From Escherichia coli (GTDB lineage: Bacteria > Pseudomonadota > Gammaproteobacteria > Enterobacterales > Enterobacteriaceae): a stretch of DNA of 64,000 nt. Positions 42,805-62,085 of the stretch are shown piece after piece. The position numbers and the translations under genes were made by a program. The stretch lies in the NCBI RefSeq assembly GCF_024298765.1, contig NZ_CP101210.1; one strand, given 5' to 3'. Under the pieces are notes generated by a model, which saw only the letters and a list, made by a program, of their open reading frames with translations, was not told the DNA's origin and searched no databases. Positions within the stretch are counted from its first letter, which is position 1; each line of letters starts with the position of its first letter.

Positions 42805-42938
42805 ATGAGTGTTAATGTTTTGATTTTAAATGATTAATCTGTGTTGGATAAATGAGTAACCCCCATAAGAACCCCCAAATAACTTTGTGTAAGGGAATGA
42901 AGCTAAAATACACAATCGAATCAATTCTTAGAGCTTTA

Positions 42939-43781
42939 TTATGAAGGTAACACTCCCGGATAGTGTTTCGCAATAATATCATTCAGCCTGTCAACCAGTT
43001 CTGGTTTCCTGAACCTGATGTGCGCGGAGCCTTTCTTAAAGTATCTGATGCTGAACATCTCATCTTCATAGCATTCTTTACCCTGAACAGACCGGATGTG
43101 ATCATCCAGACGAATAGTGATGTTTTCCCGGTTGTCGGGGATCGGTTTACCGCTGAACAGGTGCAACATTCTTTCCAGATCGGCGAGTCGGTCAGCCTGT
43201 TGCCCGGTGATAAGATGAAATCCCCACCGGTCCCACCTTACCAGGTTGTTAATGATAATTTTACTGCCAAATTTACAGGGGCAATTAGTTTTGTAATTCC
43301 AGCTCAGTCCCCTGAAGACGTTGATCACCCCTCGCTCAAACACTTCATCTTTGTTCTGGTGCAGTTGTTTAAATGTGCTCAGAATGTTCGCTTCGCTGAT
43401 TTCCGGAAAATTATCGTATTCCAGTGACCGGTACCATGTCTCACGGGCCTGCGCATCCATTAATGACAGCATCCCGGAACGTTGCATCAGGTCACGCCAG
43501 ATTTCGCGATCGAGATTGCGGGTGATGGCTTTCATTGCCGTTTCAGGTTTTTCCATCAGCCAGCAACCACAGCGAAAATCCTGTTTCATCGCCCAGTCCA
43601 GTGCGGCTTTACCGTCAATACTTTCTGTCATTGCTGAGATTTCTGCCAGTTGCCGGGTAAGTGTGTCGATTTGCAGCAGCGTACTCTTTCGTACAGCCAG
43701 AATGTGGCGGATACTGGTTGAGCAGATAACGTCCGTATGCCCGTTGACCACTTCCGGACGGGGGGCTGTGATTTCAGACAT
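42939..43781 (-). CDS. hypothetical protein (DUF4942-like, terminal gene of CP4-type islands)
   Basis: 280-aa ORF; last gene of the minus-strand backbone block; family assignment from memory. Confidence 0.55.
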   Translation of the reverse strand: MSEITAPRPEVVNGHTDVICSTSIRHILAVRKSTLLQIDTLTRQLAEISAMTESIDGKAALDWAMKQDFRCGCWLMEKPETAMKAITRNLDREIWRDLMQRSGMLSLMDAQARETWYRSLEYDNFPEISEANILSTFKQLHQNKDEVFERGVINVFRGLSWNYKTNCPCKFGSKIIINNLVRWDRWGFHLITGQQADRLADLERMLHLFSGKPIPDNRENITIRLDDHIRSVQGKECYEDEMFSIRYFKKGSAHIRFRKPELVDRLNDIIAKHYPGVLPS

Positions 43782-43865
43782 AATCGATATTCCTTTTTGC
43801 AGATAAATGAAAACGCCTGCCCTGTTCAGGCTGGCGTCAGTGGAATGAAGTCTGGTGAGTAAGAC

Positions 43866-44288
43866 TCACCGGTTCTGGTACAGAAGCTGCAGTTGGCGCA
43901 GGGTACGGATATCCTCCCTGGCCTGTTCAATACAGGGCAACAGTGCTGCCGAATCCGTTTTGTCCTCATCGTTGTCAAAGATAATTTCCGATTCGCAGTC
44001 AATATTGTCCTGCAGCCACGCAATGAGGATATCCAGCGCTGTTTCAGTGGTTAATGGCATCACGCTCTGTATCACTGTATTGTCTTCCGGCAACTGATGA
44101 GGGCTGGCAGAAGTCGCCGGTGTTTCGGTAGCGTCATGTTCATCCACCACGCGGAGTGAATAACCGTTTTCAGCGACTTTGTTAATCAGTTCAGCGAGCT
44201 TAATACCATCGACGTCAACGACAATGCGCCCCATGTTCAGCGCCTGCGCATTAATGCTGTCGGCTTCCAGCGTCAGGGCCAGTTTCAT
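43866..44288 (-). CDS. YeeW-like protein
   Basis: 140-aa ORF immediately downstream of the CbtA-like toxin, with 4-bp overlap. Confidence 0.55.
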   Translation of the reverse strand: MKLALTLEADSINAQALNMGRIVVDVDGIKLAELINKVAENGYSLRVVDEHDATETPATSASPHQLPEDNTVIQSVMPLTTETALDILIAWLQDNIDCESEIIFDNDEDKTDSAALLPCIEQAREDIRTLRQLQLLYQNR

Positions 44289-44662
44289 TGTTTCGCCCCC
44301 GGATGTTTACCCAGGGTAATGTTATTTACCGTTCTGTAGTTGTCGCGTGTCATCAGGCCGGTTGCCCGGCGTGCCCGGAGGATATCAATACTGTTTATTA
44401 ACTGAGAACGGGTACAGGCGCTGAATCCCGGCTGGTCGGTACGTACCAGCGCGTATTTTTCAACGAGAAAGTTCACCGCATCACACAGTGAAATGCCCGC
44501 TTCAATATGCTGCTCAATCACACGTTCATCAGCGAACGGTGTGTCATTCAGCGCGAGGCCGTAGTGCTGGTCCAGTAACCGGGTGAGCAGTGTCTGCCAG
44601 ATGGTGACGGGAGACGGGCAGCACGATGCCTCCCGTACATGCGTGTCGGGTAATGTTTTCAT
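44285..44662 (-). CDS. cbtA: type IV toxin-antitoxin toxin, CbtA/YkfI/YpjF family
   Basis: 125 aa from MKTLPDTHVREASCCPSPVTIWQTLLTRLLDQHYGL...; strong match to remembered CbtA family sequence. Confidence 0.85.
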   Translation of the reverse strand: MKTLPDTHVREASCCPSPVTIWQTLLTRLLDQHYGLALNDTPFADERVIEQHIEAGISLCDAVNFLVEKYALVRTDQPGFSACTRSQLINSIDILRARRATGLMTRDNYRTVNNITLGKHPGAKQ

Positions 44663-44751
44663 AATGAAGATTTTCCTGATATGCAGAGATAAAAAATGGG
44701 ACAGTGGCGTGGTGAAAGCACCAGGCCGGAGCAGAAGGTTATTCTGGAGAG

Positions 44752-45120
44752 TTACTTTTTCGTTTCGGGCGTCGGATAAACAGCCATATAAACGTAGCCA
44801 CAACTGCCGAGGGTGTCGGCTTTGCAGGTCAGACCTTTTGCATACAGCGTGACGGTATGCTGATGGCGGGGATTCAGTTCACCGCTGGTGAGCATGAGTT
44901 CCAGTTGTTTCATCAGCAGCGGAAAGGCCTGGTCCAGGTGGTACGCATCTGCATCGCTGAACAGGCCTCTGATACCGGCGCGGTCGGCAAGGTAATGCAG
45001 GCGGTTACCCTCCTGCACCAGACGTGCCCCGAAACAGGGCGTCACGGTGCAGGGCAGCCCCCACCAGGGGCGGTCGTGATTGTCGTCGGGAAGCATTGTC
45101 CCGGAGAGTGCGTCTGACAC
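44752..45120 (-). CDS. cbeA: type IV toxin-antitoxin antitoxin, CbeA/YafW/YfjZ family
   Basis: 122 aa MSDALSGTMLPDDNHDRPWWGLPCTVTPCFGARLVQEGNRLHYLADRAGIRG...; directly upstream of toxin. Confidence 0.85.
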   Translation of the reverse strand: MSDALSGTMLPDDNHDRPWWGLPCTVTPCFGARLVQEGNRLHYLADRAGIRGLFSDADAYHLDQAFPLLMKQLELMLTSGELNPRHQHTVTLYAKGLTCKADTLGSCGYVYMAVYPTPETKK

Positions 45121-45282
45121 GATAAAATCCTCACAGAAAATCGGTTAAGAATGGTTTAACGATGACAGGTCAGCCGGCGCGCAGACCGCCTTCGGTAAAG
45201 GTGTATTCGTTTATGAGCAGGGCCTCATCCACAGCGGCGTCTGAGCTCAGCCAGTCGTACTCGTTTTCCGGGTGACGGAACA

Positions 45283-45504
45283 TCAGTTCAGGGTGACGCT
45301 CATCAGCCGGACATACGGGCCAAAACTGTCCTTACGACGTTCAGCAAACACGGCCAGCACACCGGGAATATCCTGTACTTCACGACCGGTATACGTCTCA
45401 GCACTGCCGTGCCAGCGGTACTTACCGGTGTAGAACGGAAAAAGACGGGATGCAGGATGTTGTTGGTGAATACGCATGGCTTCACCACGAGTGATAATTT
45501 TCAT
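45283..45504 (-). CDS. DUF987 protein (YeeT/YpjJ-like)
   Basis: 73 aa MKIITRGEAMRIHQQHPASRLFPFYTGKYRWHGSAETYTGREV... Confidence 0.75.
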   Translation of the reverse strand: MKIITRGEAMRIHQQHPASRLFPFYTGKYRWHGSAETYTGREVQDIPGVLAVFAERRKDSFGPYVRLMSVTLN

Positions 45505-45566
45505 AATGGGATACCTCTGAAGACAGAAGATAAAAGTGAAAACAGGTGTGATGTGGTTGTGACGGG

Positions 45567-46043
45567 TTAAAGCAGACCATGTTCGGCAAAGGAGAAAACC
45601 TGGTTGCCACCGACTATCAGATGGTCCGGCACCCGGATATCCACCAGGCCCAGTGCCTGTACCAGACGTTCGGTGATAAGCCGGTCTGCCTTACTGGGTG
45701 TGACTTCACCGGACGGGTGATTGTGCGCCAGCACCACGGCAGCGGCATTGTGGTACAGGGCGCGTTTAATCACTTCCCGGGGATGGACTTCCGTGCGGTT
45801 GATGGTGCCGGTGAAGAGGGTTTCACCGGCAATCAGCTGATTCTGGTTATTCAGATACAGTACCCGGAATTCTTCACGCTCCAGTCCCGCCATGTTCAGA
45901 ATCAGCCATTCCCGTGCCGCACGGGTGGAGGTGAAGGCCACGCCGGGTTCATGAAGATGACGGTCCAGGGTTTTCAGGGCCCGCTGAATAAGGCTGCGCT
46001 CGCCGGGCGTCATCGCTCCGGGCAGAAAGGAAAGCTGTTGCAT
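45567..46043 (-). CDS. RadC-like JAB-domain protein (YeeS/YkfG/YfjY family)
   Basis: 158 aa; JAMM motif HNHPSGEVTPSKAD. Confidence 0.85.
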   Translation of the reverse strand: MQQLSFLPGAMTPGERSLIQRALKTLDRHLHEPGVAFTSTRAAREWLILNMAGLEREEFRVLYLNNQNQLIAGETLFTGTINRTEVHPREVIKRALYHNAAAVVLAHNHPSGEVTPSKADRLITERLVQALGLVDIRVPDHLIVGGNQVFSFAEHGLL

Positions 46044-46054
46044 GGCCTCTCTCC

Positions 46055-46534
46055 TCAGTCAATGATGCGCATAATGGCGCTGCATTCCGGATGCTGCAGG
46101 GCGTAATCCCGCAGCCGGTAATAATGGACCGTCATGGCATAACACTCCGTACGACAGGCGTGATGACTGTACGTCATCAGACAGGCAGCAATGCCGGCGG
46201 CTTCCGGGCTCATTTCAGCGCGGTTACCGTTCATGGCACTGAACAGTACCCATGTTTCGTCATCATCGTCATCCGGTTCGGGTGCCATAAATGCGCCACC
46301 GTTGTTCAGGGTGTACAGATTCCAGATACCCCCGCAGTAGTCTTCACACAGACGGTCCATCCAGCCGAAGATACGGGGCTCCAGGGTCACCCACTGTGGA
46401 ATGAGGCCAAAATGCTGCGGCCAGAAGCTGATGCGCTGTTCATCAGGGACGAGGCTGGCAACCAGCTGAGGCGGATTATTCTCTGGTGTTGTAGCTGAAT
46501 AAATTGTGGGGGTATTCTGAGAAACGGTCTTCAT
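46055..46534 (-). CDS. antirestriction protein (ArdB/KlcA family, YfjX-like)
   Basis: 159 aa; acidic DDDDDE stretch; conserved position upstream of radC-like gene. Confidence 0.8.
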   Translation of the reverse strand: MKTVSQNTPTIYSATTPENNPPQLVASLVPDEQRISFWPQHFGLIPQWVTLEPRIFGWMDRLCEDYCGGIWNLYTLNNGGAFMAPEPDDDDDETWVLFSAMNGNRAEMSPEAAGIAACLMTYSHHACRTECYAMTVHYYRLRDYALQHPECSAIMRIID

Positions 46535-46615
46535 GAGATAACTCCTTAAATAACAAATAAATGTGTGTTTTTCAGGAACGAAAGCTGAATGATTCCCTCA
46601 CTCAGGGAAACGGCA

Positions 46616-47434
46616 TCAGCGCAGGCTCTCCAGCATCGTTTCTGCCATCACCCACAATGCGCGGTTGAGCTTAATGTCGGTATCAATGCTGTGAATGGCC
46701 CGGGTATGGATACGTTTTCCTCTGGCACTGCGCCCGGAAATCCCGCCTTTCAGCATATTCTCCTGGATGGTCTGATAAGCACTCCACAGGTCCTTACCGT
46801 AATCCTCCCGGCGTCGTGGTGTCAGAATGTCGGCGGTGGTGACGGGCTGATGTTCGTCACCATAACGGTAAGTCAGCGCCGCCTGTGCCAGCGCCTGGCG
46901 TGCCGGTGGCGGCAGGACCAGCGACTGCATGGCATCACGCTTCTCCTCTATCCGGTCAAACACGCCCACCACCTCGTAAGCCCCTTCAATGACTCTGTCC
47001 ACCACATTTCCCCGGTGCGGAACACGTACTTCCCCCAGAGACTGACCACAGACGCAGCCGTTCTGGCAGACGAACCTGAAGTACCCCGGCAGCATCTGGT
47101 AGCTGGAGGTACCGTCATGAGAGTTGAGCAGAATAATTTCAGGGACATGTTCTCCGTTTATCTCTCCGGCCCGCCGCAGACGCAGCATGTGTTTTGTGTA
47201 TTCCCGGCGGCTCTGGTCGCGCACACGGGTCTGGCAGGCGAAGAACGGCTGAAAGCCTTCCCGCTGCAGATTTTCCAGGACGGTGATGGTGGGAATGTAC
47301 GCATACCGTTCACTGCGGGAGGTGTGCCGGTCTTCTCCAAAAATACTCGGGACGTGGTACATCAGTTCTTCGCGTGTCAGTGGGCGCTCCCGACGGATCT
47401 GATTTACATGACCAAAACGACTGGCTAATTGCAT
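46616..47434 (-). CDS. DUF932 protein (YafZ/YfjQ-like)
   Basis: 272-aa ORF; conserved backbone position. Confidence 0.75.
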   Translation of the reverse strand: MQLASRFGHVNQIRRERPLTREELMYHVPSIFGEDRHTSRSERYAYIPTITVLENLQREGFQPFFACQTRVRDQSRREYTKHMLRLRRAGEINGEHVPEIILLNSHDGTSSYQMLPGYFRFVCQNGCVCGQSLGEVRVPHRGNVVDRVIEGAYEVVGVFDRIEEKRDAMQSLVLPPPARQALAQAALTYRYGDEHQPVTTADILTPRRREDYGKDLWSAYQTIQENMLKGGISGRSARGKRIHTRAIHSIDTDIKLNRALWVMAETMLESLR

Positions 47435-47472
47435 ACTTTGCTCCTTATGAATGAATTAGCGGTATAAACGAA

Positions 47473-47500
47473 AAGGCCGCGTCTCCCGGAGAAGACGCGG
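47473..47500. other. intercistronic GC-rich stem-loop
   Basis: ggccgcgtct-cccggaga-agacgcggcc: perfect 10-bp stem between the DUF905 and DUF932 genes. Confidence 0.5.
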
Positions 47501-47523
47501 CCTGATGGATGAAATGAAGACGT

Positions 47524-47757
47524 TTATTGCCTGAGAATTCCCTCACTGGCGAGATACGAATTTAGCTGTTTTCCGGCATCAGGTTCAAAATTCCAGCACC
47601 GCCAGCGTAGCTGCCCTTCGGCATTGCGGATAACCAGCCGGAAATGCGTTCCCTGGTCATCCTCAATAAGCACATTGCGGTAAGCTGTTGTGACGGCAAC
47701 CGCCTGTTCGCGTGAGAAAGGGCCTTCGGGCAATAAAACAGGGTGGCAGTCCGACAT
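47524..47757 (-). CDS. DUF905 small protein
   Basis: 77-aa [51 protein letters not shown]... Confidence 0.65.
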
Positions 47758-47762
47758 ACCGG

Positions 47763-48440
47763 CTATTTTCCGATAAATTCAACGCTGGCGCCGGTGGCAT
47801 TACCGTCAGCACCAACCGTGACGGTCACTTTGTCGTACGCACGGTCTTCAGGATTGAATACTTCAAACTCAACCTTATTGCCTTTTACTTCGTAAGAGCC
47901 AAAATCAGCGGTTTCTGTTGTTTCCTCGTCATATTCCCGGGCGTATGCCTGCCGGGCAGCCTGCAGGACGGAATCTTTATTAATAGTGGTCGTCTGTTTC
48001 GGGGAAAAACCGGCAAGTGATGTGACAAATTTCGGACAGACCTTCAGCATATCACCGCGGGTGAATTCCATTCGTACACCAAATGCCTGTAAAACGGACA
48101 CATCACGCTCTGCTATGGAGTGAACGGCTTTTTTGACCATTTCCGGCGCCTGTCCGATTTCCACCTCAACAGCCCTGAATCCCGTCTGCTGATTACACAT
48201 TTGTGATGTGGGGATCAGGTTACCGTTAATACTGATACGGCTGCCCAGGAGCGTCTGTACACCATTCGGGCATCCCTGCATCAGGCCGGTAATACCAATC
48301 GTGCCATTTTTCAGCATTACCAGCGCCTGACCATCTTCCGTCATGGTCTGACACCAGCCGTTTTTGACAGCCCAGTTGCCGGCGGAGGCGGAGAATGATG
48401 CCACAGTGAACAGCAGGGGAAAAAGAGCTCTGGTATTCAT
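47763..48440 (-). CDS. secreted/periplasmic protein of unknown function
   Basis: 225 aa from [20 protein letters not shown] (signal peptide); GAGG Shine-Dalgarno upstream. Confidence 0.55.
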
Positions 48441-48587
48441 GACTGACCTCTGAAATGAACGTACGGTGTTATTGATAATGATGGAAGGTATGCAGTGACT
48501 GTTCAGGGAATGACGTAGCCGTATATTTAGTTTTCTGTTCAACATATTGTCTCCATACCTGTCGGGACGGCTTTGGCAGGCCGGCGA

Positions 48588-49268
48588 TCACAGGTTAAAG
48601 GTGTTGATAAGTTTATGGATGAAAGAGAAATGTGGCAGGGCGGAGATAAAACGCTCTTCAGCGACCAGACTGTGGATGTGGCCTCTCCGTTCAAACCGTT
48701 CTGATGTCAGGCTGACTGATTTGATATCTGCCAGAGGAAAGACCTGCAGTTTTCCCTTCTGTAACGCGATCAGATACCAGCTACCGCTGTAATAAATGAG
48801 CCGGCAGGGCTCCAGTGACGGATACCATCGCTCAGTCATCAGAGAGATGTGGATACACTGTCTTATTGCCAGGATGAGTTGCGAGAAACACTCGGGGAAC
48901 GTTGCAGTGATATCCGGCGCCGGTAGCCAGATAAGGCAGGGAGAGGGCTCCTGGTTGTCGGTAAGACAGGTTATCAGTCGTCCGTTCCGGAGCGGAAGTA
49001 TCCGTGCGATCCCGGTATTCTGTATAAAAGAAAGCATTTCAGGGATCGCACCTGGGCTGCTCTGTCGTCTGAGGCTGTACCTGCCATTTCTGTACTCTAA
49101 ATCCAGGTGAACCAGACGCTGATGAAAATCGCGCTGTAAAGTACGTTCTGTAACGCCAAATTCATCTGACAGTGTTTTTAGTGACAGAGATTCTCCGGCC
49201 ATCAGTCGGCTGATAATGAGTGATAAGCGAACCGCCAGGCGATCATGCCGGGAACGATTATCAGACAT
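48588..49268 (-). CDS. HTH plus WYL-domain transcriptional regulator (YfjR-like)
   Basis: 226 aa; N-terminal DeoR-type HTH (KTLSDEFGVTERTLQRD); C-terminal WYL-like region. Confidence 0.65.
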   Translation of the reverse strand: MSDNRSRHDRLAVRLSLIISRLMAGESLSLKTLSDEFGVTERTLQRDFHQRLVHLDLEYRNGRYSLRRQSSPGAIPEMLSFIQNTGIARILPLRNGRLITCLTDNQEPSPCLIWLPAPDITATFPECFSQLILAIRQCIHISLMTERWYPSLEPCRLIYYSGSWYLIALQKGKLQVFPLADIKSVSLTSERFERRGHIHSLVAEERFISALPHFSFIHKLINTFNL

Positions 49269-49470
49269 AGATGTGCACTCCGTAAGAAAACATCTTTTAT
49301 TTCATGATGTTATTATGCATCATGATGTTGAAAGGATGTGTCGCATCCGGATAATCAGGAATAAAATGCAGCAGAAAAAATATTCTTTTAATTATCTGAT
49401 TTTTAAGCATGATTTCATAAAAAGAAGAATGCTCGTTAATCCAGCGACACATCCTGTCGGCGTGAGTGTG

Positions 49471-50355
49471 TCAGAACAGACGCTCCCACAGTGTGATCAG
49501 CAGGTGGATAATGCGGTCCCGGGCTTTACGCAGAAGCTGTAACATCCAGGCCGGAAAACTGAACCGGGCAACGGCGTCGTCAAAACTTTTCCCGATGGCA
49601 TCACCAAAAGTCTGTTGTGCGTGTTTCCGGGCCTGTTCAGAGCGGTTTTCCCCCCTGATATGTGAATAAACTGCGCTGGTTGCCTGTGGTGGCAGCGCGT
49701 GGATCATCAGTGACACCAGCGCTGGAAGGTTCCAGCCTGCAGGTGCGGCTACAGGGAGTACCGGAAATGATGAAGGGAACAGGGTGGCCACCCGGGCTGT
49801 TACTGTCGCCAGTGAGAGTTCCTGGTGACGGGACGGGCATTTTTCTGTGGCATTCCATTCTTCAGCAGGAAACATGCGATCGGCATGGCTGAGAACAAAC
49901 AGAAAGCGCGAGGGATCTGCGCCCTCATTCAGTAAAAACTGATGCATGGCAATATCGGCAGCATACGCACGTTCATCACTCCGCAGGATCCAGATAATCA
50001 GATCCAGTTCCGGCAGTAACTGACGATAAAGCGCTCGGTATTCCTGATCATGCTGCGGTGTTTCACCAATGCCGGGCAGATCGACCAGCGTCATTCTGCG
50101 TTCACCGAGCTGCAGGGTAAGACGATGAGCCTGGCGGGTGCAGCCGTTCAGGGGATGCGTGGCGCAGATACGGGACTGAAAAATGGCATTACACAGGCTG
50201 CTCTTGCCGGTGCCGGATTTACCCATAATGCCAATCACGGGCTCGTAATGAATAACACCGTGGAGATGTTCAAGGATTTTCTGGCGTATTTCTTCAGGAA
50301 GAAACGTCAGATATGATTTCACTTGCGCGGAGAGGGAAGAATTGCTGAATGGCAT
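49471..50355 (-). CDS. GTPase (YfjP/YkfA/YeeP family)
   Basis: 294 aa; P-loop GKSGTGKSS, DLPG switch, ribosome-associated GTPase-like. Confidence 0.8.
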   Translation of the reverse strand: MPFSNSSLSAQVKSYLTFLPEEIRQKILEHLHGVIHYEPVIGIMGKSGTGKSSLCNAIFQSRICATHPLNGCTRQAHRLTLQLGERRMTLVDLPGIGETPQHDQEYRALYRQLLPELDLIIWILRSDERAYAADIAMHQFLLNEGADPSRFLFVLSHADRMFPAEEWNATEKCPSRHQELSLATVTARVATLFPSSFPVLPVAAPAGWNLPALVSLMIHALPPQATSAVYSHIRGENRSEQARKHAQQTFGDAIGKSFDDAVARFSFPAWMLQLLRKARDRIIHLLITLWERLF

Positions 50356-50455
50356 ACCGGTATCCTGTTGATTTCACTGAACCGGATCACACTAATCCGG
50401 TTTATCATTCAGGTAATATGGGTGTGAAAATTTTTCCATTGACGGGAAGAAGAGT

Positions 50456-51679
50456 ATGGCTAAAAACAAAGGTATTTGTCGGAATAAAAAATGCAGTAAT
50501 CCTGTTTCAGAATTTGATGAGGCAAATGCCTTAAGGTTATGCGATGATCATTATAAGCTATGGAAGCGAAATAAAGAGAATCGTCGGGTCAGGAATATTT
50601 GTCGTATAATCAGTAAATATGACAAAAGTCTGGACCGGGAGATATTTTATGGAGTAAGAGATGCTGCAAAAAATAAAACGGGAAAGAGAATTATTGAGGA
50701 CGCAAAAATATTACATCAATGCCGTGCCTCAAAGCAAGTAAGAAAAAGTTTTCACAAGGGTGTGCTTCGGTCACGGGAATGGCTTAATACACAGGAGTTA
50801 CTGAGCAGAAAACATATATCTGTTACAGGTGAACTATTTAAATTTTACATAAAAGATATTATCAGATTATATTGCTATAAGTTTCTCTACAGCAGAGAAT
50901 ATCTTAATGAAAACGCATACAAAAAACGATATCAGAGTGATATTCACCCCAGAAAAGTTAATGTTCCGATACTGCAACTTGAAGTTGCATGGATAAATAA
51001 TAATTGCCGTTCAAGTGATTCAAGCACTGATATTATTATCCTTCCGAGGATGATAAGAAGAATGGTTGTATTTAATTATACGAAGATAAATAAACAATTA
51101 GAGAAATTGTTAGGGGGGATAGCACGAAAACAAACCTCAGAAAGGAATAAAGGCGGTCTCTATACCAGAATAAAAAAAGAAAGTGACTTTCTTTCTATGG
51201 ATAGATTTATGGTGGAAATAGAAAATATCATAAGGCCTGAAAGGTTTCCGACATCAATTTATCCAGTCTTTTCACATTCATTTATTGAACGAGAGCTTCC
51301 GCTACTGAATCTTGCTCGATCACAGTATAAAAGAGCAATAAGTAAAAAAGTGGCGAATTCAATTTTTTATACTTTGCAAAAAACTAACGTAGCATTATGG
51401 CTACATCTTGAAATGTTTGCTCTGGTGGCATTCATTAAACTGTATACAGGAAAAGGTTTTGAATTCATAAAAAACATGTGTGCATTTATCGATTATAATA
51501 ATGGGATAATAAAATCCACACATGAAGAACTACTGGGTGAAATTAAGCATAACATTCAGGTTAATTTGAAGGTGAACCCTGATAATTTTCCTGAGCTAAT
51601 AAATATATACAATTCATGTTTTAGTAAAAATATATTTTTATATGATATTAATGATGGTAATTTTAAATGGTGTTCATGA
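50456..51679 (+). CDS. hypothetical protein, Lys-rich with N-terminal Cys/His cluster (candidate novel defense/abortive-infection gene)
   Basis: 407-aa ORF; purine-rich RBS; very AT-rich codon usage; C8-x4-C13...C29-x2-H32; divergent from GTPase gene. Confidence 0.6.
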   Translation: MAKNKGICRNKKCSNPVSEFDEANALRLCDDHYKLWKRNKENRRVRNICRIISKYDKSLDREIFYGVRDAAKNKTGKRIIEDAKILHQCRASKQVRKSFHKGVLRSREWLNTQELLSRKHISVTGELFKFYIKDIIRLYCYKFLYSREYLNENAYKKRYQSDIHPRKVNVPILQLEVAWINNNCRSSDSSTDIIILPRMIRRMVVFNYTKINKQLEKLLGGIARKQTSERNKGGLYTRIKKESDFLSMDRFMVEIENIIRPERFPTSIYPVFSHSFIERELPLLNLARSQYKRAISKKVANSIFYTLQKTNVALWLHLEMFALVAFIKLYTGKGFEFIKNMCAFIDYNNGIIKSTHEELLGEIKHNIQVNLKVNPDNFPELINIYNSCFSKNIFLYDINDGNFKWCS

Positions 51680-51978
51680 TTCTAAAATAGCAAATTCATA
51701 TTGCATATTAATTATCAACAAAAAACACATAATAAAATTTCAATAAGTTACCTGCTAATGGTGCTGATGATCCGCCAGTTTAGTATGGTTATATGATTTG
51801 ATGGTTAATGCTTACAGATAATCACACTTTCTTATGAATAGTATAAATGAGCATGCCATAGTCGTTTGTTCAGAGATAAAATTTACTGAATGAGCTTATG
51901 TTGTGGTTATCTGTACTTACCGGATACGACGACTTATATTCCTCACATTATATGGCTTAACTTTTCTGGGGTAAAGCG

Positions 51979-52044
51979 ATGGAGTTACAGACGCTGATTA
52001 CGATGGTTTACTGTCTCGTTATCACGGGATTTCTGCTGTACTGA
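51979..52044 (+). CDS. putative 21-aa hydrophobic mini-protein (speculative)
   Basis: ORF MELQTLITMVYCLVITGFLLY preceded by GGGGTAAAGCG; could be chance in AT-rich DNA. Confidence 0.2.
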   Translation: MELQTLITMVYCLVITGFLLY

Positions 52045-54042: not shown

Positions 54043-54774
54043 ATGAATCAACCAATACACAATGATTACTGGTTATCCCGTTTTGAAAGTATTCTCAACA
54101 GTGCCCTGGTGCAACACCGTGCCGTCTCGTTAATCCGGGTGGATTTACGTTTCCCTGAGCATATGCCTGTCACCATCATGGATCCCGATCCGGATTCAGC
54201 GGTGATTTCTCGTTTTTTCGAATCCCTGAAAGCCAAAATTCAGGCTTACCAGCGGAAAAAACGACGTACCAACAAGCGTGTGCGTGCAACCACCCTGCAT
54301 TATTTCTGGTGTCGAGAGTTTGGCAAGGAAAAAGGCAGGAAACATTATCACGTGATATTACTGCTCAACAAAGATACCTGGTGCTCGCCAGGGGATTTCA
54401 CCGTTCCTTCTTCGCTGGCGACGCTGATCCAACTGGCATGGTGTAGCGCTCTGCATCTTGAGCCCTGGCAGGGTAATGGACTGGTTCATTTTTCCAGGCG
54501 GACGCCTTTCCGTAAACCGGCATCATCTGATGCTCGCCCTTCTTCCGATGATACGCCTTTGTCGGGTGGATGTTCTGAAACCAGGAAGGCTTCAGACAAA
54601 AAGCCGGGTGAAGCCGCTGTTCTCTGGATCAAGCGTGGTGATGTGGAAGCGATGCAGAAAGCCATGGAGAGAGCCCGTTATCTCGTGAAGTATGAGACGA
54701 AGCAGCATGACGGTTCTGGTCAACGTAATTATGGTTGCAGCCGTGGAGCGGGGCGTCTACTGGATGGCAGGTGA
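54043..54774 (+). CDS. inovirus Gp2-like replication-associated protein (YagK/YfjJ family)
   Basis: 243 aa; HYHVILLL motif region; family assignment from memory. Confidence 0.65.
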   Translation: MNQPIHNDYWLSRFESILNSALVQHRAVSLIRVDLRFPEHMPVTIMDPDPDSAVISRFFESLKAKIQAYQRKKRRTNKRVRATTLHYFWCREFGKEKGRKHYHVILLLNKDTWCSPGDFTVPSSLATLIQLAWCSALHLEPWQGNGLVHFSRRTPFRKPASSDARPSSDDTPLSGGCSETRKASDKKPGEAAVLWIKRGDVEAMQKAMERARYLVKYETKQHDGSGQRNYGCSRGAGRLLDGR

Positions 54775-54884
54775 ACCCTGTAAAACGGCATCCGGTGCCA
54801 GAGTATATGTCACAGTAAGGTCGTTGGCTGACGCCCTTAGCTCGTTTTCTGAAAAAGTTTTTCTGAAGTAATGTGGATTTGCCC

Positions 54885-55790
54885 CTATATTTCCAGACAT
54901 CTGTTATCACTTAACCCATTACAAGCCCGCTGCCGCAGATATTCCCGTGGCGAGCGATAACCCAGCGCACTATGCGGATGCCATTCGTTATAATGCTCGA
55001 ACGCCTCTGCAAGGTTCTTTGCTGCCGTTAACCCGTCTGGTTTGGGCATGATACTGATGTAGTCACGCTTTATCGTTTTCACGAAGCTCTCTGCGATTCC
55101 GTTACTCTCCGGACTCCGCACCGCCGTGTTCTTCGGTTCAAGTCCCAACATCCGGGCGAACTGGCGTGTTTCATTAGCCCGGTAGCATGAACCATTATCC
55201 GTCAGCCACTCCACTGGAGACGACGGAAGATCGTTGCCGAAGCGGCGTTCCACCGCTCCCAGCATGACGTCCTGTACTGTTTCACTGTTGAAGCCGCCGG
55301 TAGTGACCGCCCAGTGCAGTGCCTCACGATCACAGCAGTCCAGCGCGAACGTGACACGCAGTCTCTCTCCGTTATCACAGCAGAACTCGAACCCGTCAGA
55401 GCACCATCGCTGATTGCTTTCTTTCACGGCCACTCTGCCTGTATGTGCCCGTTTCGATGGCGGTACAGCAGGTTTTCGCTCAAGCAACAGCGCATTCTGG
55501 CGCATGATCCGGTAAACACGTTTGGCATTGATCGCAGGCATACCATCAAGTTCGGCCTGTCTGCGAAGCAGCACCCATACCCGACGATAACCATATGTGG
55601 GCAGCTCTCCGATAACATGGTGTATACGGAGAAGCACATCCGTATCATCAGTGTGACGGCTGCGGCGACCATCTTTCCAGTCATCGGTTCGTCTGAGAAT
55701 GACGTGCAACTGCGCACGCGACACCCGGAGACAACGGCTGACTAAGCTTACTCCCCATCCCCGGGCAATAAGGGCGCGTGCGCTATCCAC
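54885..55790 (-). CDS. insD: IS2 transposase InsD (OrfB)
   Basis: 301 aa [34 protein letters not shown]...; DDE integrase core. Confidence 0.92.
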
Positions 55791-56113
55791 TTTTTTGCAC
55801 GCCCATATTCAACGGCTTCTTTAAGGAGTTCATTTTCCATCGTTTTTTTGCCGAGCAGGCGCTGGAGTTCTTTAATCTGCTTCATGGCAGCAGCAAGTTC
55901 AGAGGCAGGAACGACCTGTTCTCCTGCGGCCACAGCAGTAAGACTTCCCTCCTGGTATTGCTTGCGCCAGAGAAATAACTGGCTGGCTGCCACACCGTGT
56001 TGCCGGGCAACAAGGGAGACCGTCATTCCCGGTTCAAAACTCTGCTGAACAATAGCGATCTTTTCCTGTGTAGTACGCCGTCTGCGTTTCTCCGGTCCTA
56101 AGACATCAATCAT
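55748..56113 (-). CDS. insC: IS2 InsC (OrfA)
   Basis: 121 aa from [29 protein letters not shown]. Confidence 0.9.
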
Positions 56114-56261
56114 CTGCTCTCCAATGACTAGTCTAAAAACTAGTATTAAGACTATCACTTAAATAAGTGATATTGGTTGTCTGGAGATTCAGGGGGGCCA
56201 GTCTACTGAATGAGCGAAATGTGATTTACCTTCTTTTCTGTTCATTGTAAATTCCCTCTTT

Positions 56262-56290
56262 GCTAACGCAAATCATTATCATTACGCCTT
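56262..56290 (+). promoter_or_regulatory. putative Fur box in receptor promoter
   Basis: aatcattatcattac contains AATCATTATC, an exact match to the 3-prime half of the Fur consensus GATAATGATAATCATTATC. Confidence 0.45.
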
Positions 56291-56306: not shown

Positions 56307-58355
56307 ATGAAGAACAAATATATCATTGCTCCGGGCATTGCCGTGATGTGTTCTGCAGTTATATCATCAGGTTATGCCAGTTCTGATAAAAAAGAAGATA
56401 CGCTTGTTGTTACTGCCTCCGGGTTCACTCAGCAGCTCAGAAATGCCCCGGCCAGTGTCTCAGTCATTACTTCAGAACAACTGCAAAAAAAACCGGTTTC
56501 AGATCTGGTCGATGCAGTAAAAGATGTTGAAGGGATTAGTATCACTGGTGGGAATGAAAAACCGGATATCAGTATACGTGGTCTAAGTGGCGATTACACG
56601 CTGATTCTGGTCGATGGACGACGTCAGAGCGGTCGGGAATCCAGACCAAACGGCAGCGGCGGTTTTGAAGCCGGATTTATCCCTCCTGTGGAAGCAATTG
56701 AACGCATTGAAGTGATCCGTGGCCCTATGTCTTCCCTGTATGGTTCTGATGCCATCGGAGGGGTCATTAATATCATAACCAAACCAGTTAATAACCAAAC
56801 ATGGGATGGCGTACTTGGACTTGGGGGGATTATTCAGGAACATGGGAAATTTGGTAACTCAACCACAAATGACTTCTATCTGTCAGGCCCATTGATTAAG
56901 GATAAACTTGGTCTTCAGCTATATGGAGGAATGAACTATCGCAAGGAAGATAGTATCTCTCAGGGAACACCGGCAAAAGATAATAAGAATATAACGGCAA
57001 CGCTCCAGTTTACTCCGACTGAAAGCCAGAAGTTTGTTTTTGAATATGGAAAAAATAACCAGGTGCATACATTAACACCTGGTGAGTCTCTCGATGCCTG
57101 GACTATGCGGGGAAATCTTAAACAACCAAACAGTAAAAGAGAAACGCATAATTCACGTAGTCACTGGGTAGCAGCATGGAATGCCCAGGGCGAAATACTG
57201 CATCCTGAAATTGCTGTTTATCAGGAGAAAGTTATTCGTGAGATTAAATCAGGTAAAAAAGATAAATATAATCATTGGGATCTTAATTACGAGTCAAGAA
57301 AACCGGAAATAACCAACACAATCATAGATGCAAAAGTGACGGCATTTCTGCCGGAAAATGTACTGACCATCGGAGGTCAATTTCAGCATGCAGAGCTCCG
57401 TGATGACTCAGCCACGGGTAAAAAAACGACAGAAACACAGTCTGTTTCAATTAAACAGAAAGCTGTTTTTATAGAAAATGAATATGCAGCAACGGATTCT
57501 CTCGCCCTGACTGGAGGACTGCGTCTCGATAATCATGAAATCTATGGCAGTTACTGGAATCCAAGATTGTACGCTGTTTATAACCTGACCGATAATCTCA
57601 CACTCAAAGGGGGGATCGCAAAAGCATTTCGGGCTCCTTCAATTCGTGAGGTGAGTCCTGGATTTGGAACACTGACGCAGGGTGGTGCCTCTATTATGTA
57701 TGGAAACAGGGACCTGAAACCGGAGACCAGTGTAACCGAAGAGATCGGTATTATTTATAGTAATGATAGTGGTTTTTCGGCGAGCGCGACGCTGTTTAAT
57801 ACTGATTTTAAAAATAAGTTGACCAGTTACGATATAGGTACAAAAGATCCAGTCACCGGGTTAAACACTTTTATTTATGATAATGTAGGTGAGGCAAATA
57901 TCAGAGGGGTGGAGCTTGCAACTCAGATTCCTGTGTATGATAAATGGCATGTATCTGCAAACTATACATTTACTGACTCTCGTCGAAAAAGTGATGACGA
58001 AAGTCTCAATGGCAAGTCGCTGAAAGGGGAACCTCTGGAAAGAACTCCCAGACATGCAGCCAATGCAAAACTGGAATGGGATTACACTCAGGATATTACA
58101 TTTTATTCATCTCTGAATTATACGGGAAAACAAATCTGGGCAGCACAAAGAAATGGTGCTAAGGTTCCCCGCGTTCGTAATGGATTCACATCTATGGATA
58201 TTGGTCTAAATTACCAGATTCTGCCAGACACGCTGATTAATTTTGCCGTTCTTAACGTCACAGACAGAAAGAGCGAGGATATCGATACCATTGATGGTAA
58301 CTGGCAGGTCGATGAAGGACGCCGTTATTGGGCTAATGTAAGAGTATCCTTCTGA
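56307..58355 (+). CDS. ireA: TonB-dependent outer-membrane siderophore receptor (IreA-like)
   Basis: 682 aa; signal peptide; TonB box DTLVVTAS; plug domain; C-terminal beta-barrel ending in F; symbol from memory of IreA length and N-terminus. Confidence 0.7.
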   Translation: MKNKYIIAPGIAVMCSAVISSGYASSDKKEDTLVVTASGFTQQLRNAPASVSVITSEQLQKKPVSDLVDAVKDVEGISITGGNEKPDISIRGLSGDYTLILVDGRRQSGRESRPNGSGGFEAGFIPPVEAIERIEVIRGPMSSLYGSDAIGGVINIITKPVNNQTWDGVLGLGGIIQEHGKFGNSTTNDFYLSGPLIKDKLGLQLYGGMNYRKEDSISQGTPAKDNKNITATLQFTPTESQKFVFEYGKNNQVHTLTPGESLDAWTMRGNLKQPNSKRETHNSRSHWVAAWNAQGEILHPEIAVYQEKVIREIKSGKKDKYNHWDLNYESRKPEITNTIIDAKVTAFLPENVLTIGGQFQHAELRDDSATGKKTTETQSVSIKQKAVFIENEYAATDSLALTGGLRLDNHEIYGSYWNPRLYAVYNLTDNLTLKGGIAKAFRAPSIREVSPGFGTLTQGGASIMYGNRDLKPETSVTEEIGIIYSNDSGFSASATLFNTDFKNKLTSYDIGTKDPVTGLNTFIYDNVGEANIRGVELATQIPVYDKWHVSANYTFTDSRRKSDDESLNGKSLKGEPLERTPRHAANAKLEWDYTQDITFYSSLNYTGKQIWAAQRNGAKVPRVRNGFTSMDIGLNYQILPDTLINFAVLNVTDRKSEDIDTIDGNWQVDEGRRYWANVRVSF

Positions 58356-58393: not shown

Positions 58394-59736
58394 ACCAGTG
58401 TAGTAATCAGTAATGTCAGTTTCCAGGTTGTAATGCTTTTAATCTTGATTAAAATAATCTTAATAATTTAAACTTGTTAAATATCGATGATTTTAATTTG
58501 AGAGCGTTCAGAATTCTGTGTCACGTTAAAAATTCTACAGCGTCATCACATTATTCAGCCGCCCTTCAAAATAAATGGCTAACTGCGACAATGTCAAATT
58601 CCAGCTTTGGATGGGCATTGTCCATTTCTCCTGTGCGTTCATCAGTCCCAGATAAAGTAGCTTCAACAGGCTGTTTTCATTCGGGAAAGCACCTTTAGGT
58701 TTTGGTCAGTTTCCTGAACTGGCGGTGGACTGATTCTATCGCGTTGGTTGTGTAGATCACCTTGCGGATATTCGCCGGATAGCGGAAGTACGCTGACAGA
58801 TTTTCCCTCTTGCGGCGCCAGGACTGGAGCACCACCGGATATTGCTGCCCCCGTTTCGCTTCCAGCTCATCCAGCGCCGTTTCCGACACCGCACGATACA
58901 CTGGCTTCAGGTCGGCCATGAACGCTTTATGGTGTTTTGACGCCACATATTTAATCGAGTTACGTATCTGGTGAATGACGCACAACTGTACCTCTGTCTG
59001 CGGATAAATGCTGTTTATCGCTTCAGGGAAGCCGGTCAGCCCATCCACGCAGGCAATCAGAATGTCTTCAACGCCACGGTTTTGCAGATCACTTAATACT
59101 GACAGCCAGAAGTTAGCGCCTTCGCTTTCCGACAAATACAGGCCCAGGACTTCTTTTTTGCCTTCCAGATTCAGCGCCAGTACGGTATAAACTGCCTTGC
59201 TCTGATAACACCCATCTTCGCGGATTTTATAGTGAATGGCGTCCAGCCAGACGAAGGGATAAACCTTTTCCAGCGGGCGCTGCTGCCACTGTTTTAACTC
59301 AGGAATGACTTTATCGGTAACCGCACTGATGGTAGCCGTGGAAACACTGAAGGCATATAAATCTTCGATCTCCCGGCTGATATCCTGGTAGCTCATCCCC
59401 AGCGCGAACAGGCGAATGATCTTGCGCTCGAGCTCATCAGACAGCGTGGTCTGGTGCTTCTTCACCAGTTGGGGTTCAAAATAACCATTACGATCACGTG
59501 GAGTTGCCAGCTCAAAGCTGCCAGTCGGGGCTTTAATGGTCTTTTTTCCGGAACCATTTTTACGATTGACTTCAAAATCCTGAGCCAGATGGGAGTCGAG
59601 TTCAGCGGCCAGAGCGGTTTCTGTTAACTGTTTGATTAATGGCGTTAGGATACCATCCTTGCCGGTTAATGCTTGGCCGGACTGAACCGCCCCGGAAATC
59701 CTGGAGACTAAACTCCCTGAGAAAGAGGTAAACAGG

Positions 59737-60063
59737 ATGACTAAAAATACTCGTTTTTCCCCCGAAGTCCGTCAACGGGCAGTTCGTATGGTTCTGGAAA
59801 GTCAGGGCGAATATGACTCACAATGGGCGGCAATTTGTTCCATTGCTCCAAAGACTGGCTGTACGCCGGAGACTCTGCGTGTCTGGGTTCGCCAGTATGA
59901 GCGGGATACCGGGGGCGGAGATGGAGGGCTCACCAGTGCTGAACGTCAGCGTCTGAAAGAGCTGGAACGTGAAAATCGTGAACTGCGCCGCAGCAACAAT
60001 ATCCTTCGCCAGGCTTCCGCTTATTTTGCGAAGGCGGAGTTCGACCGCCTCTGGAAAAAGTGA
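59737..60063 (+). CDS. IS629 OrfA
   Basis: 108 aa [39 protein letters not shown]... Confidence 0.88.
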
Positions 60064-60950
60064 TGGCACTGCTGGATAAGCTGCGTGAGCAGTACGGGGT
60101 CAGACCGGTATGCAGTGAACTGCATATTGCCCCGTCAACGTATTACCACTGTCAGCAACAGCGACATCATCCTGATAAACGCAGTGCACATGCACAGCGC
60201 GATGACTGGCTGAAGAGAGAGATACAGCGCGTATACGATGAAAATCATCAGTGTACCGTGTGCGTAAAGTCTGGCGCCAGTTGTTACGGGAAGGAATCAG
60301 GATGGCCAGATGTACAGTGGTGCGCCTCATGGCGGTTATGGGACTTGCCGGTGTTCTCCGGGGTAAAAAGGTCCGCACTACCGTCAGCCGGAAAACCGTT
60401 GCCGCAGGTGACCGCGTAAACCGTCAGTTCGTGGCAGAACGTCCTGACCAGCTGTGGGTGGCTGATTTTACTTACGTCAGCACATGGCAGGGCTTCGTCT
60501 ATAGTGGCGTTCATCATTGATGTATTTGCCGGATATATCGTGGGGTGGTGGGTCTCATCGTCTATGGAAACGACATTCGTGCTGGATGCGCTGGAGCAGG
60601 CGTTGTGGGCCCGCCGTCCGTCCGGCACCATCCATCACAGCGATAAAGGCTCTCAGTATGTGTCACTGGCCTATATGGAGCGATTAAAAGAAGCAAAACT
60701 GCTGGCATCAACAGGGAGTACAGGCGACTCGTATGACAACGCGATGGCGGAGAGCATCAATGGTCTTTACAAAGCGGAGGTAATACACCGTAAGAGCTGG
60801 AAAAACCGTGCAGAAGTGGAACTGGCCACACTCACGTGGGTGGACTGGTATAACAATCGACGATTGCTGGGAAGGCTGGGCCATACTCCTCCGGCAGAAG
60901 CAGAAAAAGCTTATTATGCTTCCATCGGAAACAATGATCTGGCAGCCTGA
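60060..60950 (+). pseudogene. IS629 OrfB transposase, frameshifted
   Basis: DDE transposase sequence split over three overlapping frames (60060-60419, 60251-60520, 60504-60950). Confidence 0.8.
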
Positions 60951-61097
60951 GTTCACAGATAAAACACTCTCCAGGAAACCCGGGGCGGTTCAGGACTGGA
61001 GTGCCTTAAGCGCTTTATCGAAATCGAAGGGTTGGGACATGTGTCATTCCTTTTTGGTTGTATATTACTGGAATGACACAGAATTTCTAACACTCCC

Positions 61098-62085
61098 TTT
61101 AATTTAGGTTTATTACTATTATTATACTTACTCTCTTTTTTACATGACCTCAATCTTTACGATTATATTCACTCTATCTTTACACATTCCATTACTCTTA
61201 TCCTCATCCAATTATATTCATGTCCTTCTCTAATCTTCCTTGTCACCATTATCATAATATCCACTTCTTCCCTCATTCAATCATAATTACTGTAATTCAT
61301 ACGTTACTCAGATAAGTTATTCTCTACAGCTACGCTATTGTTGATATCCATCTGTTCTCATTTTCAGTGAAACAGTAATTGATTTTAATTTATCCATCAT
61401 GAACTGTATTTGCTTAACAATGATTGTTTATCTGAAGTGTTTTAACTATTCTGGTTGGAAACAATTTCTCTGTCATCAAAGATTAACTGAATGTTTACTC
61501 TTTGATAAGGTATCCATGGTTCCGTCATGTTTAACAGCGCAGGATAAACAACAGAATTAACAGAGTGAATTTCTGATTATATTTGTTGCCGGTTGTATTG
61601 TTTAAGGTACTGGGTGAAAATTATTCATCCATTGTATGTTGTCTTATGCTATCGTGTGTCGTTAACGTTCATATCCTGGAAAACAGATTGAATAAGCGCG
61701 TGTGAGTTTATTGTGGTGACCTTATAAACGTTTTTTCAGACTCACTGAGAGCAAATTTACAAATCATGAGCTTATAGTTGTAATATGTTTCCTAACCGCC
61801 TGGCAGCGGGATTACAGTTCGTATTTTTCTGTATTTCACTGTGTTGTATTGAATCTGTATTTTCTTCGCACCTCGTTTATCTCATCTCTATAGACAATGC
61901 CATCAGATAACTCATACCCTTCAGCACAACGCTGTGTGTCGTTAATAATCCGTCGTATCCATTCTGTTACAGCATGCCTGATAAATACCATCTGTAAGTT
62001 ATTACCGTTTTAGATCTGATTATGAGCGAAAGCATTAATTCGCTCACAGAGCTTAAAACATCATTAACTTTCAGGAGTCATCAAC
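61098..62085. other. about 1 kb ORF-free AT-rich spacer with G-depleted tract
   Basis: No ORF of 60 aa or more on either strand; 61108-61300 is pyrimidine-rich on the plus strand with about six G. Confidence 0.6.

Follow-up and report, generated by a model that had tools for sequence, protein, structure and literature searches.

The IS2 element upstream of the siderophore receptor gene ireA in this Escherichia coli chromosome is probably the recombination joint of two IS2 copies and not a primary insertion. Its ends have been mapped exactly, and it occupies the place of 578 bp that are missing relative to IS2-free relatives. The element is a chimera of two IS2 sequence subtypes, and its right junction is shared with a second type of island, with the breakpoint between the two inside IS2. 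The stretch of DNA that was analysed (the window, 64 kb) matches, with equal coordinates, the opening 64 kb of a number of E. coli chromosomes, for example NZ_CP058874.1 of strain STLEFF_47.

The IS2 element and its ends

The ends of the element were mapped with K-12 IS2A (NC_000913.3 381260-382590), an annotated mobile element, as the reference. In the alignment the outer end of the terminal inverted repeat IRR, TGGATTTGCCCC, begins at 54874 and the outer end of IRL, ...GGCCAGTCTA, finishes at 56205. The extent of 54874-56205 given for IS2 in a first-pass annotation of the window is therefore exact, with both ends matching K-12 IS2A. The parts of the element are as follows.

54874..56205, minus strand: IS2, complete, K-12/W chimera of 1332 bp, both ends identical to K-12 IS2A
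54874..54914: IRR, 41 bp, outer end TGGATTTG, facing the Gp2 gene (K-12 IS2A alignment)
54885..55790, minus strand: orfB, integrase core / DDE domain (Pfam rve and rve_3; open reading frame list)
55751..56113, minus strand: orfA, HTH_Tnp_1 (Pfam; sequence; annotation)
56163..56205: IRL, 43 bp against the usual 42 (one extra base), facing ireA (K-12 IS2A alignment)

The window copy differs from K-12 IS2A by 30 substitutions and one extra base, and is 97.7% identical to it overall. The extra base lies in the C-run of IRL (the G-run at 56192-56197 on the plus strand), which makes the element 1332 bp long instead of 1331 bp. This base is limited to a subset of the genomes that carry the junction, and IMT5155 and D10 have the usual 5-base run.

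The terminal inverted repeats (IRL TAGACTGG..., IRR ...GCAAATCCA) and the length of ~1331 bp are those of IS2. The same is true of the coding content, in which orfA (HTH) and orfB (DDE) overlap and are joined by a -1 frameshift at an A6G window at 55790-55796 on the minus strand (the plus strand reads CTTTTTT). In the RefSeq annotation of an identical genome the gene is an IS3-like element IS2 family transposase with a programmed frameshift and not a pseudogene. DNA similar to the window IS2 is present in 7677 records, and no second IS2 copy was found within the 64-kb window.

Flanking pentamers and the IS2-free site

The pentamers next to the two ends were identified from the sequence and from IS2-free relatives.

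54869..54873: TAATG, adjoining IRR (site 1), homologous to TCATG
56206..56210: CTGAA, adjoining IRL (site 2), mismatching the left pentamer

With the exact ends set by K-12 IS2A, no 5-bp target duplication was found at the window IS2 (TAATG on the left, CTGAA on the right). The lack of an obvious duplication had been noted in the first-pass annotation, and the flanks quoted there, ctgaagtaatg and ctgaatgagcg, are correct. End mapping against a reference element had been proposed as a check, with exact direct repeats as the outcome that would speak against the observation, and such repeats are absent. Five other IS2 copies were end-mapped in the identical manner as controls. All five have clean 5-bp repeats (K-12 IS2A, ATTAC; pSTEC2018_553-a, TTTAG; PK-F-10122, CGATG; MDR_56, ATCAG; MS 119-7, TATTC), so the missing repeat is a real property of the window copy. 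A duplication marks the insertion event and not the element; the assignment to IS2 stands, while the status of a primary insertion is lost.

The exact 34-mer across the left junction is present in 108 of 5,426 complete E. coli genomes and is thus not an assembly artefact. The whole stretch from the Gp2 gene through IS2 to ireA, including a type with a variant left flank, is found in 149 genomes; this alternative left flank accounts for ~41 genomes beyond the 108.

Without IS2, the Gp2 gene and ireA lie close together in 163 complete genomes, and the intact upstream region of ireA, whatever lies further left, is present in 195. Three IS2-free Gp2-ireA genomes were included in an alignment of the spacer, which reads ...CTGAAGTCATG, followed by 578-590 bp (578 bp in strain 20KM2762), followed by CTGAATGAGCG.... 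The flanks of the window IS2 stop and restart exactly at the two edges of this stretch. A comparison with receptor islands that lack IS2, which had also been suggested, thus places the flanks 578 bp apart, so that they are non-contiguous in IS-free relatives, as expected for a hybrid IS. IS2 stands where these relatives have 578 bp, and the native DNA upstream of ireA is cut to 101 bp, against 679 bp in the intact allele (20KM2762 and CFT073, for example).

The 578-bp stretch contains no open reading frame longer than 55 amino acids, no Rfam match and no consensus promoter, and it is unrelated to yfjI. Its first 214 bp are ordinary backbone of the Gp2-acyltransferase islands that lack ireA. 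An origin of the junction by inversion or translocation was considered and rejected, as there is no other IS2 in the window and the extra copy of the 578 bp in strain CT30 is part of a second, complete ireA island.

A hybrid of two IS2 subtypes

Diagnostic sites separate the K-12-type copies (K-12, PK-F-10122) from a W subtype (D10 copy 2, MDR_56, MS 119-7), which is ~4% divergent evenly over the whole of IS2. Scored at these sites, the window copy falls into two segments.

54874..55517: K-12-type IS2 segment (14/14 diagnostic sites, 54966-55517, are K-type)
55518..55553: crossover interval (last K-type marker at 55517, first W-type marker at 55554)
55554..56205: W-type IS2 segment, ~4.6% divergent, linked to ireA (26/28 sites, 55554-56163, are W-type)

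The IRR half of the window IS2 has 1 difference from K-12 IS2A and 24-28 from the W copies, while the IRL half has 6 differences from pure W copies and 30 from K-12. The element is therefore a mosaic with one switch between parental subtypes, and this single switch at 55518-55553 is, judged from the diagnostic sites, what a crossover between two copies of IS2 leaves behind. The suggestion of the first-pass annotation that the junction arose by an IS-mediated deletion or recombination, and not by a simple insertion, is supported both by this chimera and by the absence of the 578 bp. The identical K-12/W hybrid is carried by IMT5155, and the pure W-type copies found elsewhere are simple insertions with clean duplications. 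There are 461 records at least 99% identical to the window IS2, a figure for identity only, irrespective of coverage. The hybrid could in principle have been formed elsewhere than at the ireA junction.

The left flank and its Gp2 allele

The left neighbour of IS2 contains the following features.

54043..54774, plus strand: inovirus Gp2 / YagK-YfjJ family gene, an allele of islands with yfjI downstream (annotation, Pfam)
54816..54839, plus strand: conserved hairpin behind the Gp2 gene, 34 nt from the IS2 junction
54857..54873, plus strand: 17-nt patch GTTTTTCTGAAGTAATG with 4 substitutions seen only in IS2-bearing genomes

The Gp2/YagK-YfjJ product resembles a rolling-circle replication protein (Pfam REP_ORF2-G2P). 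Over 4.3 kb the left flank is ~100% identical to an island that lacks ireA and has yfjI after the Gp2 gene (L007). Within the Gp2 gene, identity between the window and the ireA islands without IS2 is no more than 90-94%, and none of the 163 such islands exceeds 96-97.5% identity to the window flanks. IS2 presence and the Gp2 allele show complete linkage. Had DNA been deleted within an ireA island, the Gp2 allele of that island would have been kept, and the allele switch therefore speaks for recombination through IS2, by which the switch and the junction would arise together.

A further complication comes from the hairpin loop within the final 55 bp of the left flank. It resembles the allele of the ireA/acyltransferase type and not that of the yfjI type, which means that the left flank is itself a mosaic. 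Descent from an ireA-bearing island followed by replacement of the allele is possible. No IS2 at site 1 was found beside a consensus, unmutated left flank, all junction hits carrying the 4 window-specific substitutions. Likewise, no IS2-free island has the window-type end of the left flank (the best is 97.7% identical over 300 bp), and the exact 34-mer of the left junction occurs only beside IS2.

A second island type with the same right junction

The second copy in D10 (D10 copy 2, L015) has the order Gp2, acyltransferase, ...CACTATG, IS2, CTGAATGAGCG, ireA. Its right junction, from IRL through CTGAATGAGCG to ireA, is identical to that of the window, while its left flank is different. This second arrangement, of which D10 copy 2 is an example, is the reason why the broader query finds 149 genomes and the exact 34-mer 108. 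The D10-type arrangement is also present in three metagenome contigs.

The IS2 of D10 copy 2 is of pure W-type. It differs from the window by 28 substitutions across 54966-55723, and the next 6 kb contain only 3 substitutions and the 1-base indel in IRL, so that the similarity between the two shifts abruptly within IS2. To the right, D10 agrees with the window at the junction, in ireA and in the IS remnants beyond it as far as the compared D10 stretch extends (window position 61805). On the left, the IS2-free strain JNE170426 matches D10 as far as the last base ahead of IRR, beyond which its sequence is unrelated. From the shared right junction and the breakpoint inside IS2 it follows that ireA moves together with the IRL half, and that the IRR half is part of the recipient island, as is the left flank.

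No duplication is present at the D10 junction either (CTATG on the left, CTGAA on the right), which requires at least one further undocumented and still hidden event. A D10-type precursor, in which IS2 would be flanked by a CTATG duplication, was looked for and not found; the closest case, PK-F-10122, has a separate K-12-type IS2 that lies 270 bp further along and is flanked by a CGATG duplication.

A pseudo-element forms the right-hand limit of the block that the window has in common with the second island type.

58535..61098: IS256-family (ISEc39-like) pseudo-element, split by an IS3-family pseudo-element at 59737-60950 (annotation)

The exchanged block ends at ~61098, and homology to the IS-free backbones resumes at 61099. 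A composite transposon carrying ireA between IS2 and ISEc39 was rejected on two grounds. Its ends would differ, an IS3-family IS2 on one side and an IS256-family pseudo-element on the other, and the right boundary lies inside shared island backbone. The ireA block is better explained by homologous exchange.

Origin of the junction

Based on these observations, we propose a two-parent model. A W-type IS2 would have inserted at CTGAA, 101 bp upstream of ireA, and a K-12-type IS2 in the same orientation would have inserted at T(C/A)ATG, 34 nt past the Gp2 hairpin, in a related CP4-like island. Homologous (RecA-type) recombination between both copies, with the crossover at 55518-55553, would then have produced the hybrid IS2. 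One parent would have supplied its IRR half with the left flank, the other its IRL half with the shortened region upstream of ireA, ireA itself and the IS remnants beyond. Another exchange, in the backbone that the islands share on the right, where homology begins at 61099, would complete the installation of the IS2-ireA block, which would thus have been carried between related islands by recombination. As each flank would keep one copy of a different target duplication, no 5-bp repeat is expected. Both parental insertions, the direction in which the block moved and the role of RecA are inferred parts of this model. That the left pentamer is a genuine IS target is indicated by an island without ireA (metagenome contig L023), in which IS100 is inserted at this pentamer with a TCATG duplication.

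The model predicts two parental junctions, GTTAACTGAA joined to TGGATTTGCCCC where IS2 occupies site 2 and the 578 bp are still in place, and GGCCAGTCTA joined to T(A/C)ATGCAATGTTTCC where IS2 occupies site 1 of a yfjI-type island. Among 5,426 complete genomes and 60 metagenome contigs, neither parental insertion was found, that is, neither IS2 at T(C/A)ATG with this pentamer duplicated nor IS2 at CTGAA with the 578 bp intact. The parental simple insertions that accompany a hybrid IS are thus missing from the genomes and contigs sampled, and the parents may be extinct or unsampled. Intermediates were also sought with chimeric junction queries against the 5,426 complete E. coli genomes. In none of these genomes does the 578-bp region follow an IS2 at site 1 or precede an IS2 at site 2, and in none does an IS2 at site 1 run into the yfjI-type continuation. 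The sole hit with full coverage, plasmid pSTEC2018_553-a, was rejected as an intermediate, since it carries an independent IS2 170 bp into the spacer with a clean TTTAG duplication. A scan of the GTDB representative genomes for the site-1 motif found nothing.

Alternatively, a single IS2 at CTGAA or TCATG in the spacer between the Gp2 gene and ireA could have removed the neighbouring 578 bp by transposase-mediated adjacent deletion. This would proceed by intramolecular transposition, for example through the active junction of a tandem dimer, and would leave one IS2 without a duplication. Such a route agrees with the finding that both flanks belong to one spacer, keep their order and orientation and, in relatives without IS2, are separated by exactly 578 bp; the hairpin variant adjoining IS2 also resembles alleles that natively continue into the 578-bp sequence. 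On the other hand, adjacent deletion leaves unexplained the K-12/W chimera, the Gp2 allele typical of islands without ireA, and the occurrence of the right junction behind a second left flank, with the breakpoint inside IS2, and none of the 5,426 complete genomes contains an intermediate. We consider it unlikely as the origin of the window junction, although a transposase-driven adjacent deletion as the first step in some ancestor is possible.

ireA and its promoter region

To the right of IS2, the following features have been identified.

56262..56286, plus strand: Fur box, two overlapping matches, retained (56262-56280, 15/19; 56268-56286, 14/19)
56307..58355, plus strand: ireA, TonB-dependent siderophore receptor (open reading frame list, RefSeq annotation of an identical genome, Pfam)

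IreA has a Plug domain and a TonB-dependent barrel. The match at 56262-56280 (15/19) scores higher against the Fur consensus than any other site in the 64-kb window, and the Fur box lies 21-45 bp upstream of the ireA ATG, as predicted for a Fur-regulated receptor. In CFT073, ireA is a direct Fur target for which Fur binding has been reported (PMC7157518). The distance from the IRL end is 101 bp to the ATG and 56 bp to the Fur box, in agreement with the earlier estimates of about 100 bp and about 60 bp. These 101 bp upstream of the ATG, with the Fur box and the ribosome-binding region, are untouched by IS2. Since the Fur box is retained, Fur control of ireA is expected to be intact, and normal iron-repressible expression would be expected from the sequence.

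The first-pass annotation had raised the possibility that the outward-facing partial promoter of IS2 alters expression of the receptor. The orientation of the element argues against this. The outward-directed -35 lies in IRR, which is the donor end (PMC3299598, PMC9330008, also for the lengths and roles of the inverted repeats). The promoter P-IRL reads inward, and it is only in the minicircle that the strong junction promoter arises (PMC9330008; PMC3299598). In the window, IRR is directed toward the 3' end of the Gp2 gene and IRL toward ireA, so that the outward -35 points away from ireA. A consensus promoter scan across the junction between IS2 and ireA found nothing that reads into ireA or crosses the IRL end; the junction search returned one weak 8/12 match only, with a 19-nt spacer. 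No IS2-derived promoter is thus expected to read into ireA, and any regulatory effect would have to stem from the loss of the 578 bp, in which there is no recognisable signal.

These results also bear on whether IS2 was selected for changing ireA expression, either through an outward promoter or by removing an upstream negative element. Three independent IS2 insertions upstream of ireA or at the equivalent island position (the window, pSTEC2018_553-a and PK-F-10122) have the same orientation, and the truncated allele, common among poultry isolates, is found in ~149 of ~345 complete genomes with ireA, as selection might produce. Its frequency can also be explained by clonal spread. As the outward -35 in IRR is directed away from ireA (PMC9330008; PMC3299598), the IRL end is crossed by no promoter-like site beyond the lone weak match, the Fur box has been kept, and the 578 bp hold no sizeable open reading frame, Rfam family or consensus promoter, selection of this kind appears very unlikely.

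Comparison with known systems

The window IS2 resembles the IS2 of K-12 in length class, identical termini, orfA and orfB with the A6G window, and the HTH_Tnp_1 and rve domains. It differs from it in lacking a 5-bp duplication, in being a hybrid of the K-12 subtype and the ~4%-divergent one and in having an IRL of 43 bp, one more than the usual 42.

Homologous recombination between IS copies gives rise to deletions and inversions and leaves hybrid IS elements without direct repeats. Examples are the IS6110-associated deletions of Mycobacterium tuberculosis and the IS1- and IS26-mediated rearrangements of enterobacterial plasmids. As in these cases, one IS is left in the window, its flanks are non-contiguous in IS-free relatives, the repeats are unmatched and the intervening DNA is gone. 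Unlike in the textbook cases, the crossover is directly visible because the parental IS2 copies belong to different sequence subtypes, and the exchange appears to move a block of virulence genes between paralogous islands and not only to delete DNA.

Adjacent deletion by an IS from active IR-IR junctions is known from IS30/IS911-type pathways. It would likewise leave one IS beside the deletion without a duplication. A non-chimeric IS is predicted in that case, however, whereas the chimera and the second left flank of the ireA junction argue for homologous recombination.

A further comparison can be made with the ampC hybrid promoter made by IS2 (Jaurin and Normark 1983, as cited in PMC9330008). 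That hybrid promoter requires a spacing of 17 bp between the outward -35 in IRR and a resident -10. The window IS2 also lies immediately upstream of a chromosomal gene, but here IRL faces ireA, 101 bp from the ATG.

Significance for ireA and island exchange

Both IS2 and recombination between its copies are well known, and the junction is an ordinary case of the IS route by which pathogenicity islands are reshuffled. The missing duplication is fully explained by this standard process, and nothing new about IS2 is needed. The main value of the locus is as a worked example and as a point of annotation. In ~149 of the ~345 ireA-positive complete E. coli genomes, ireA has only 101 bp of native upstream DNA, and the short-upstream allele is present in much-studied avian pathogenic strains, IMT5155 and BEN2908 among them. 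IreA has been tested as a vaccine antigen against urinary tract infection (PMC2736566). Expression studies and promoter constructs should record which upstream allele of ireA a strain carries, and the chimeric IS2 provides a clean marker for tracing the movement of the ireA block between CP4-like islands.

The left-junction pentamer and the 17-nt patch

CTGAA is present in both flanks (54863-54867 and 56206-56210), as if a simple insertion had a duplication that was missed through mis-mapped or later mutated ends; with ends equal base for base to K-12 IS2A, the left CTGAA 6 bp off the junction and the two flanks 578 bp apart in IS2-free genomes, this reading has virtually no chance of being correct and is already refuted by the end mapping and the empty-site comparison.

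The 17-nt patch at the left junction matches the reverse complement of ireA 56465-56481 at 16/17 positions, and 3 of its 4 substitutions convert toward that sequence. An inverted match that good within 2 kb was obtained for 1 in 6,000 random 17-mers of the window. One possibility is that a short template switch during repair lies behind the patch.

The left-junction pentamer is also the exact point at which the yfjI-type islands and the ireA/acyltransferase-type islands lose homology, and other alleles have a 12-nt indel at this position. Four independent events thus coincide at T(C/A)ATG: the IS2 junction, the IS100 insertion with its TCATG duplication, the 12-nt indel and the homology break. 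It is conceivable, if highly doubtful, that T(C/A)ATG is a structural or enzymatic hot spot for IS landing and cargo exchange, with the 4 substitutions as the product of template-switch repair there.

A recurrent rearrangement point downstream of the Gp2 gene

The pentamer T(C/A)ATG, located 34 nt past the hairpin that follows the Gp2 gene (inovirus Gp2/YagK-YfjJ family), is a recurrent rearrangement point. Its occurrences are as follows:

Window 54869-54873: pentamer site
L023:3075-5038 (metagenome contig): pentamer site with the IS100 insertion
L013:2988 (locus in another genome or contig): pentamer site
L007:4599 (island without ireA, with yfjI after Gp2): pentamer site
L002:3599 (locus in another genome or contig): pentamer site

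In the window, the pentamer forms the junction with IS2. In the metagenome contig it has been the target of an IS100 insertion, flanked by a TCATG duplication, and other alleles carry a 12-nt indel, [A/C]AACGGTATTTT, at the same place. The homology between the islands of the yfjI type and those of the ireA/acyltransferase type also stops exactly at this pentamer.

The sequence adjoining the IS2 IRR

The 17 nt adjoining the IRR (window 54857-54873) read GTTTTTCTGAAGTAATG and agree at 16 of 17 positions with the reverse complement of ireA-internal nucleotides 56465-56481, while the consensus of the IS2-free alleles, GTCGTCCTGAAGTCATG, matches that reverse complement at only 14 of 17. The match to the inverted ireA segment is created by three of the four substitutions specific to the window. 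Of 6,000 random 17-mers of the window, 1 had an equally good inverted match within 2 kb.

The 34 nt from the Gp2 hairpin to the pentamer (window 54840-54873, minus strand, and its homologues) are near-invariant in most of the Gp2 alleles with coding regions ~10% different from one another; the exceptions are the IAI39-type and window alleles. Read by eye, the minus strand of this interval contains a putative 11-codon ORF starting at the pentamer (ATG ACT TCA GGA CGA CTT TTT CAG AAA ACG AGC TAA), and the window variant, by the same reading, would be without its ATG.

An additional base in the IS2 IRL

At the ireA-facing end of IS2, the C-run of the IRL (window 56192-56197) has a one-base insertion, with six residues versus five, giving an IRL of 43 bp. 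The ST117-like genomes with the coordinates of the window have the extra base. IMT5155 and D10 share the junction and are without the extra base.

ireA in other contexts

The conjugative plasmid pSTEC2018_553-a (NZ_CP075666.1; L005 4956-9069) also bears ireA, adjoining trbA/trbC genes, of which trbA is annotated as IncI1-type. The start of its island-derived segment falls inside the Gp2 hairpin. The plasmid carries an independent IS2 in the same orientation, inserted 170 bp into the ireA upstream region with a TTTAG duplication; this copy is of the reciprocal hybrid type, with a divergent IRR half and a K-12-type IRL half.

In some genomes ireA is present twice, each copy on one of a pair of paralogous islands. 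In CT30 (NZ_CP032078.1; L008), one copy is truncated by IS2 and the other is intact, and in D10 (NZ_CP010157.1; L012/L015) both IS2-bearing ireA arrangements are present.

The surrounding island

The features flanking the Gp2-IS2-ireA region are as follows:

Window 42900-52000: CP4-like element (surrounding island)
Window 58497-61098: IS256-family (ISEc39-like) element downstream of ireA, split by an IS3-family pseudo-element with IS629-like ends

The CP4-like island genes include the CbtA/CbeA toxin-antitoxin, antirestriction, DUF932, and GTPase-family genes. The presence of several Gp2/YagK-YfjJ paralogues (54043, 62086, and 64053) suggests tandem or composite islands. At roughly the position of the split element downstream of ireA, 20KM2762 and the second CT30 copy have an intact, oppositely oriented ISEc39.
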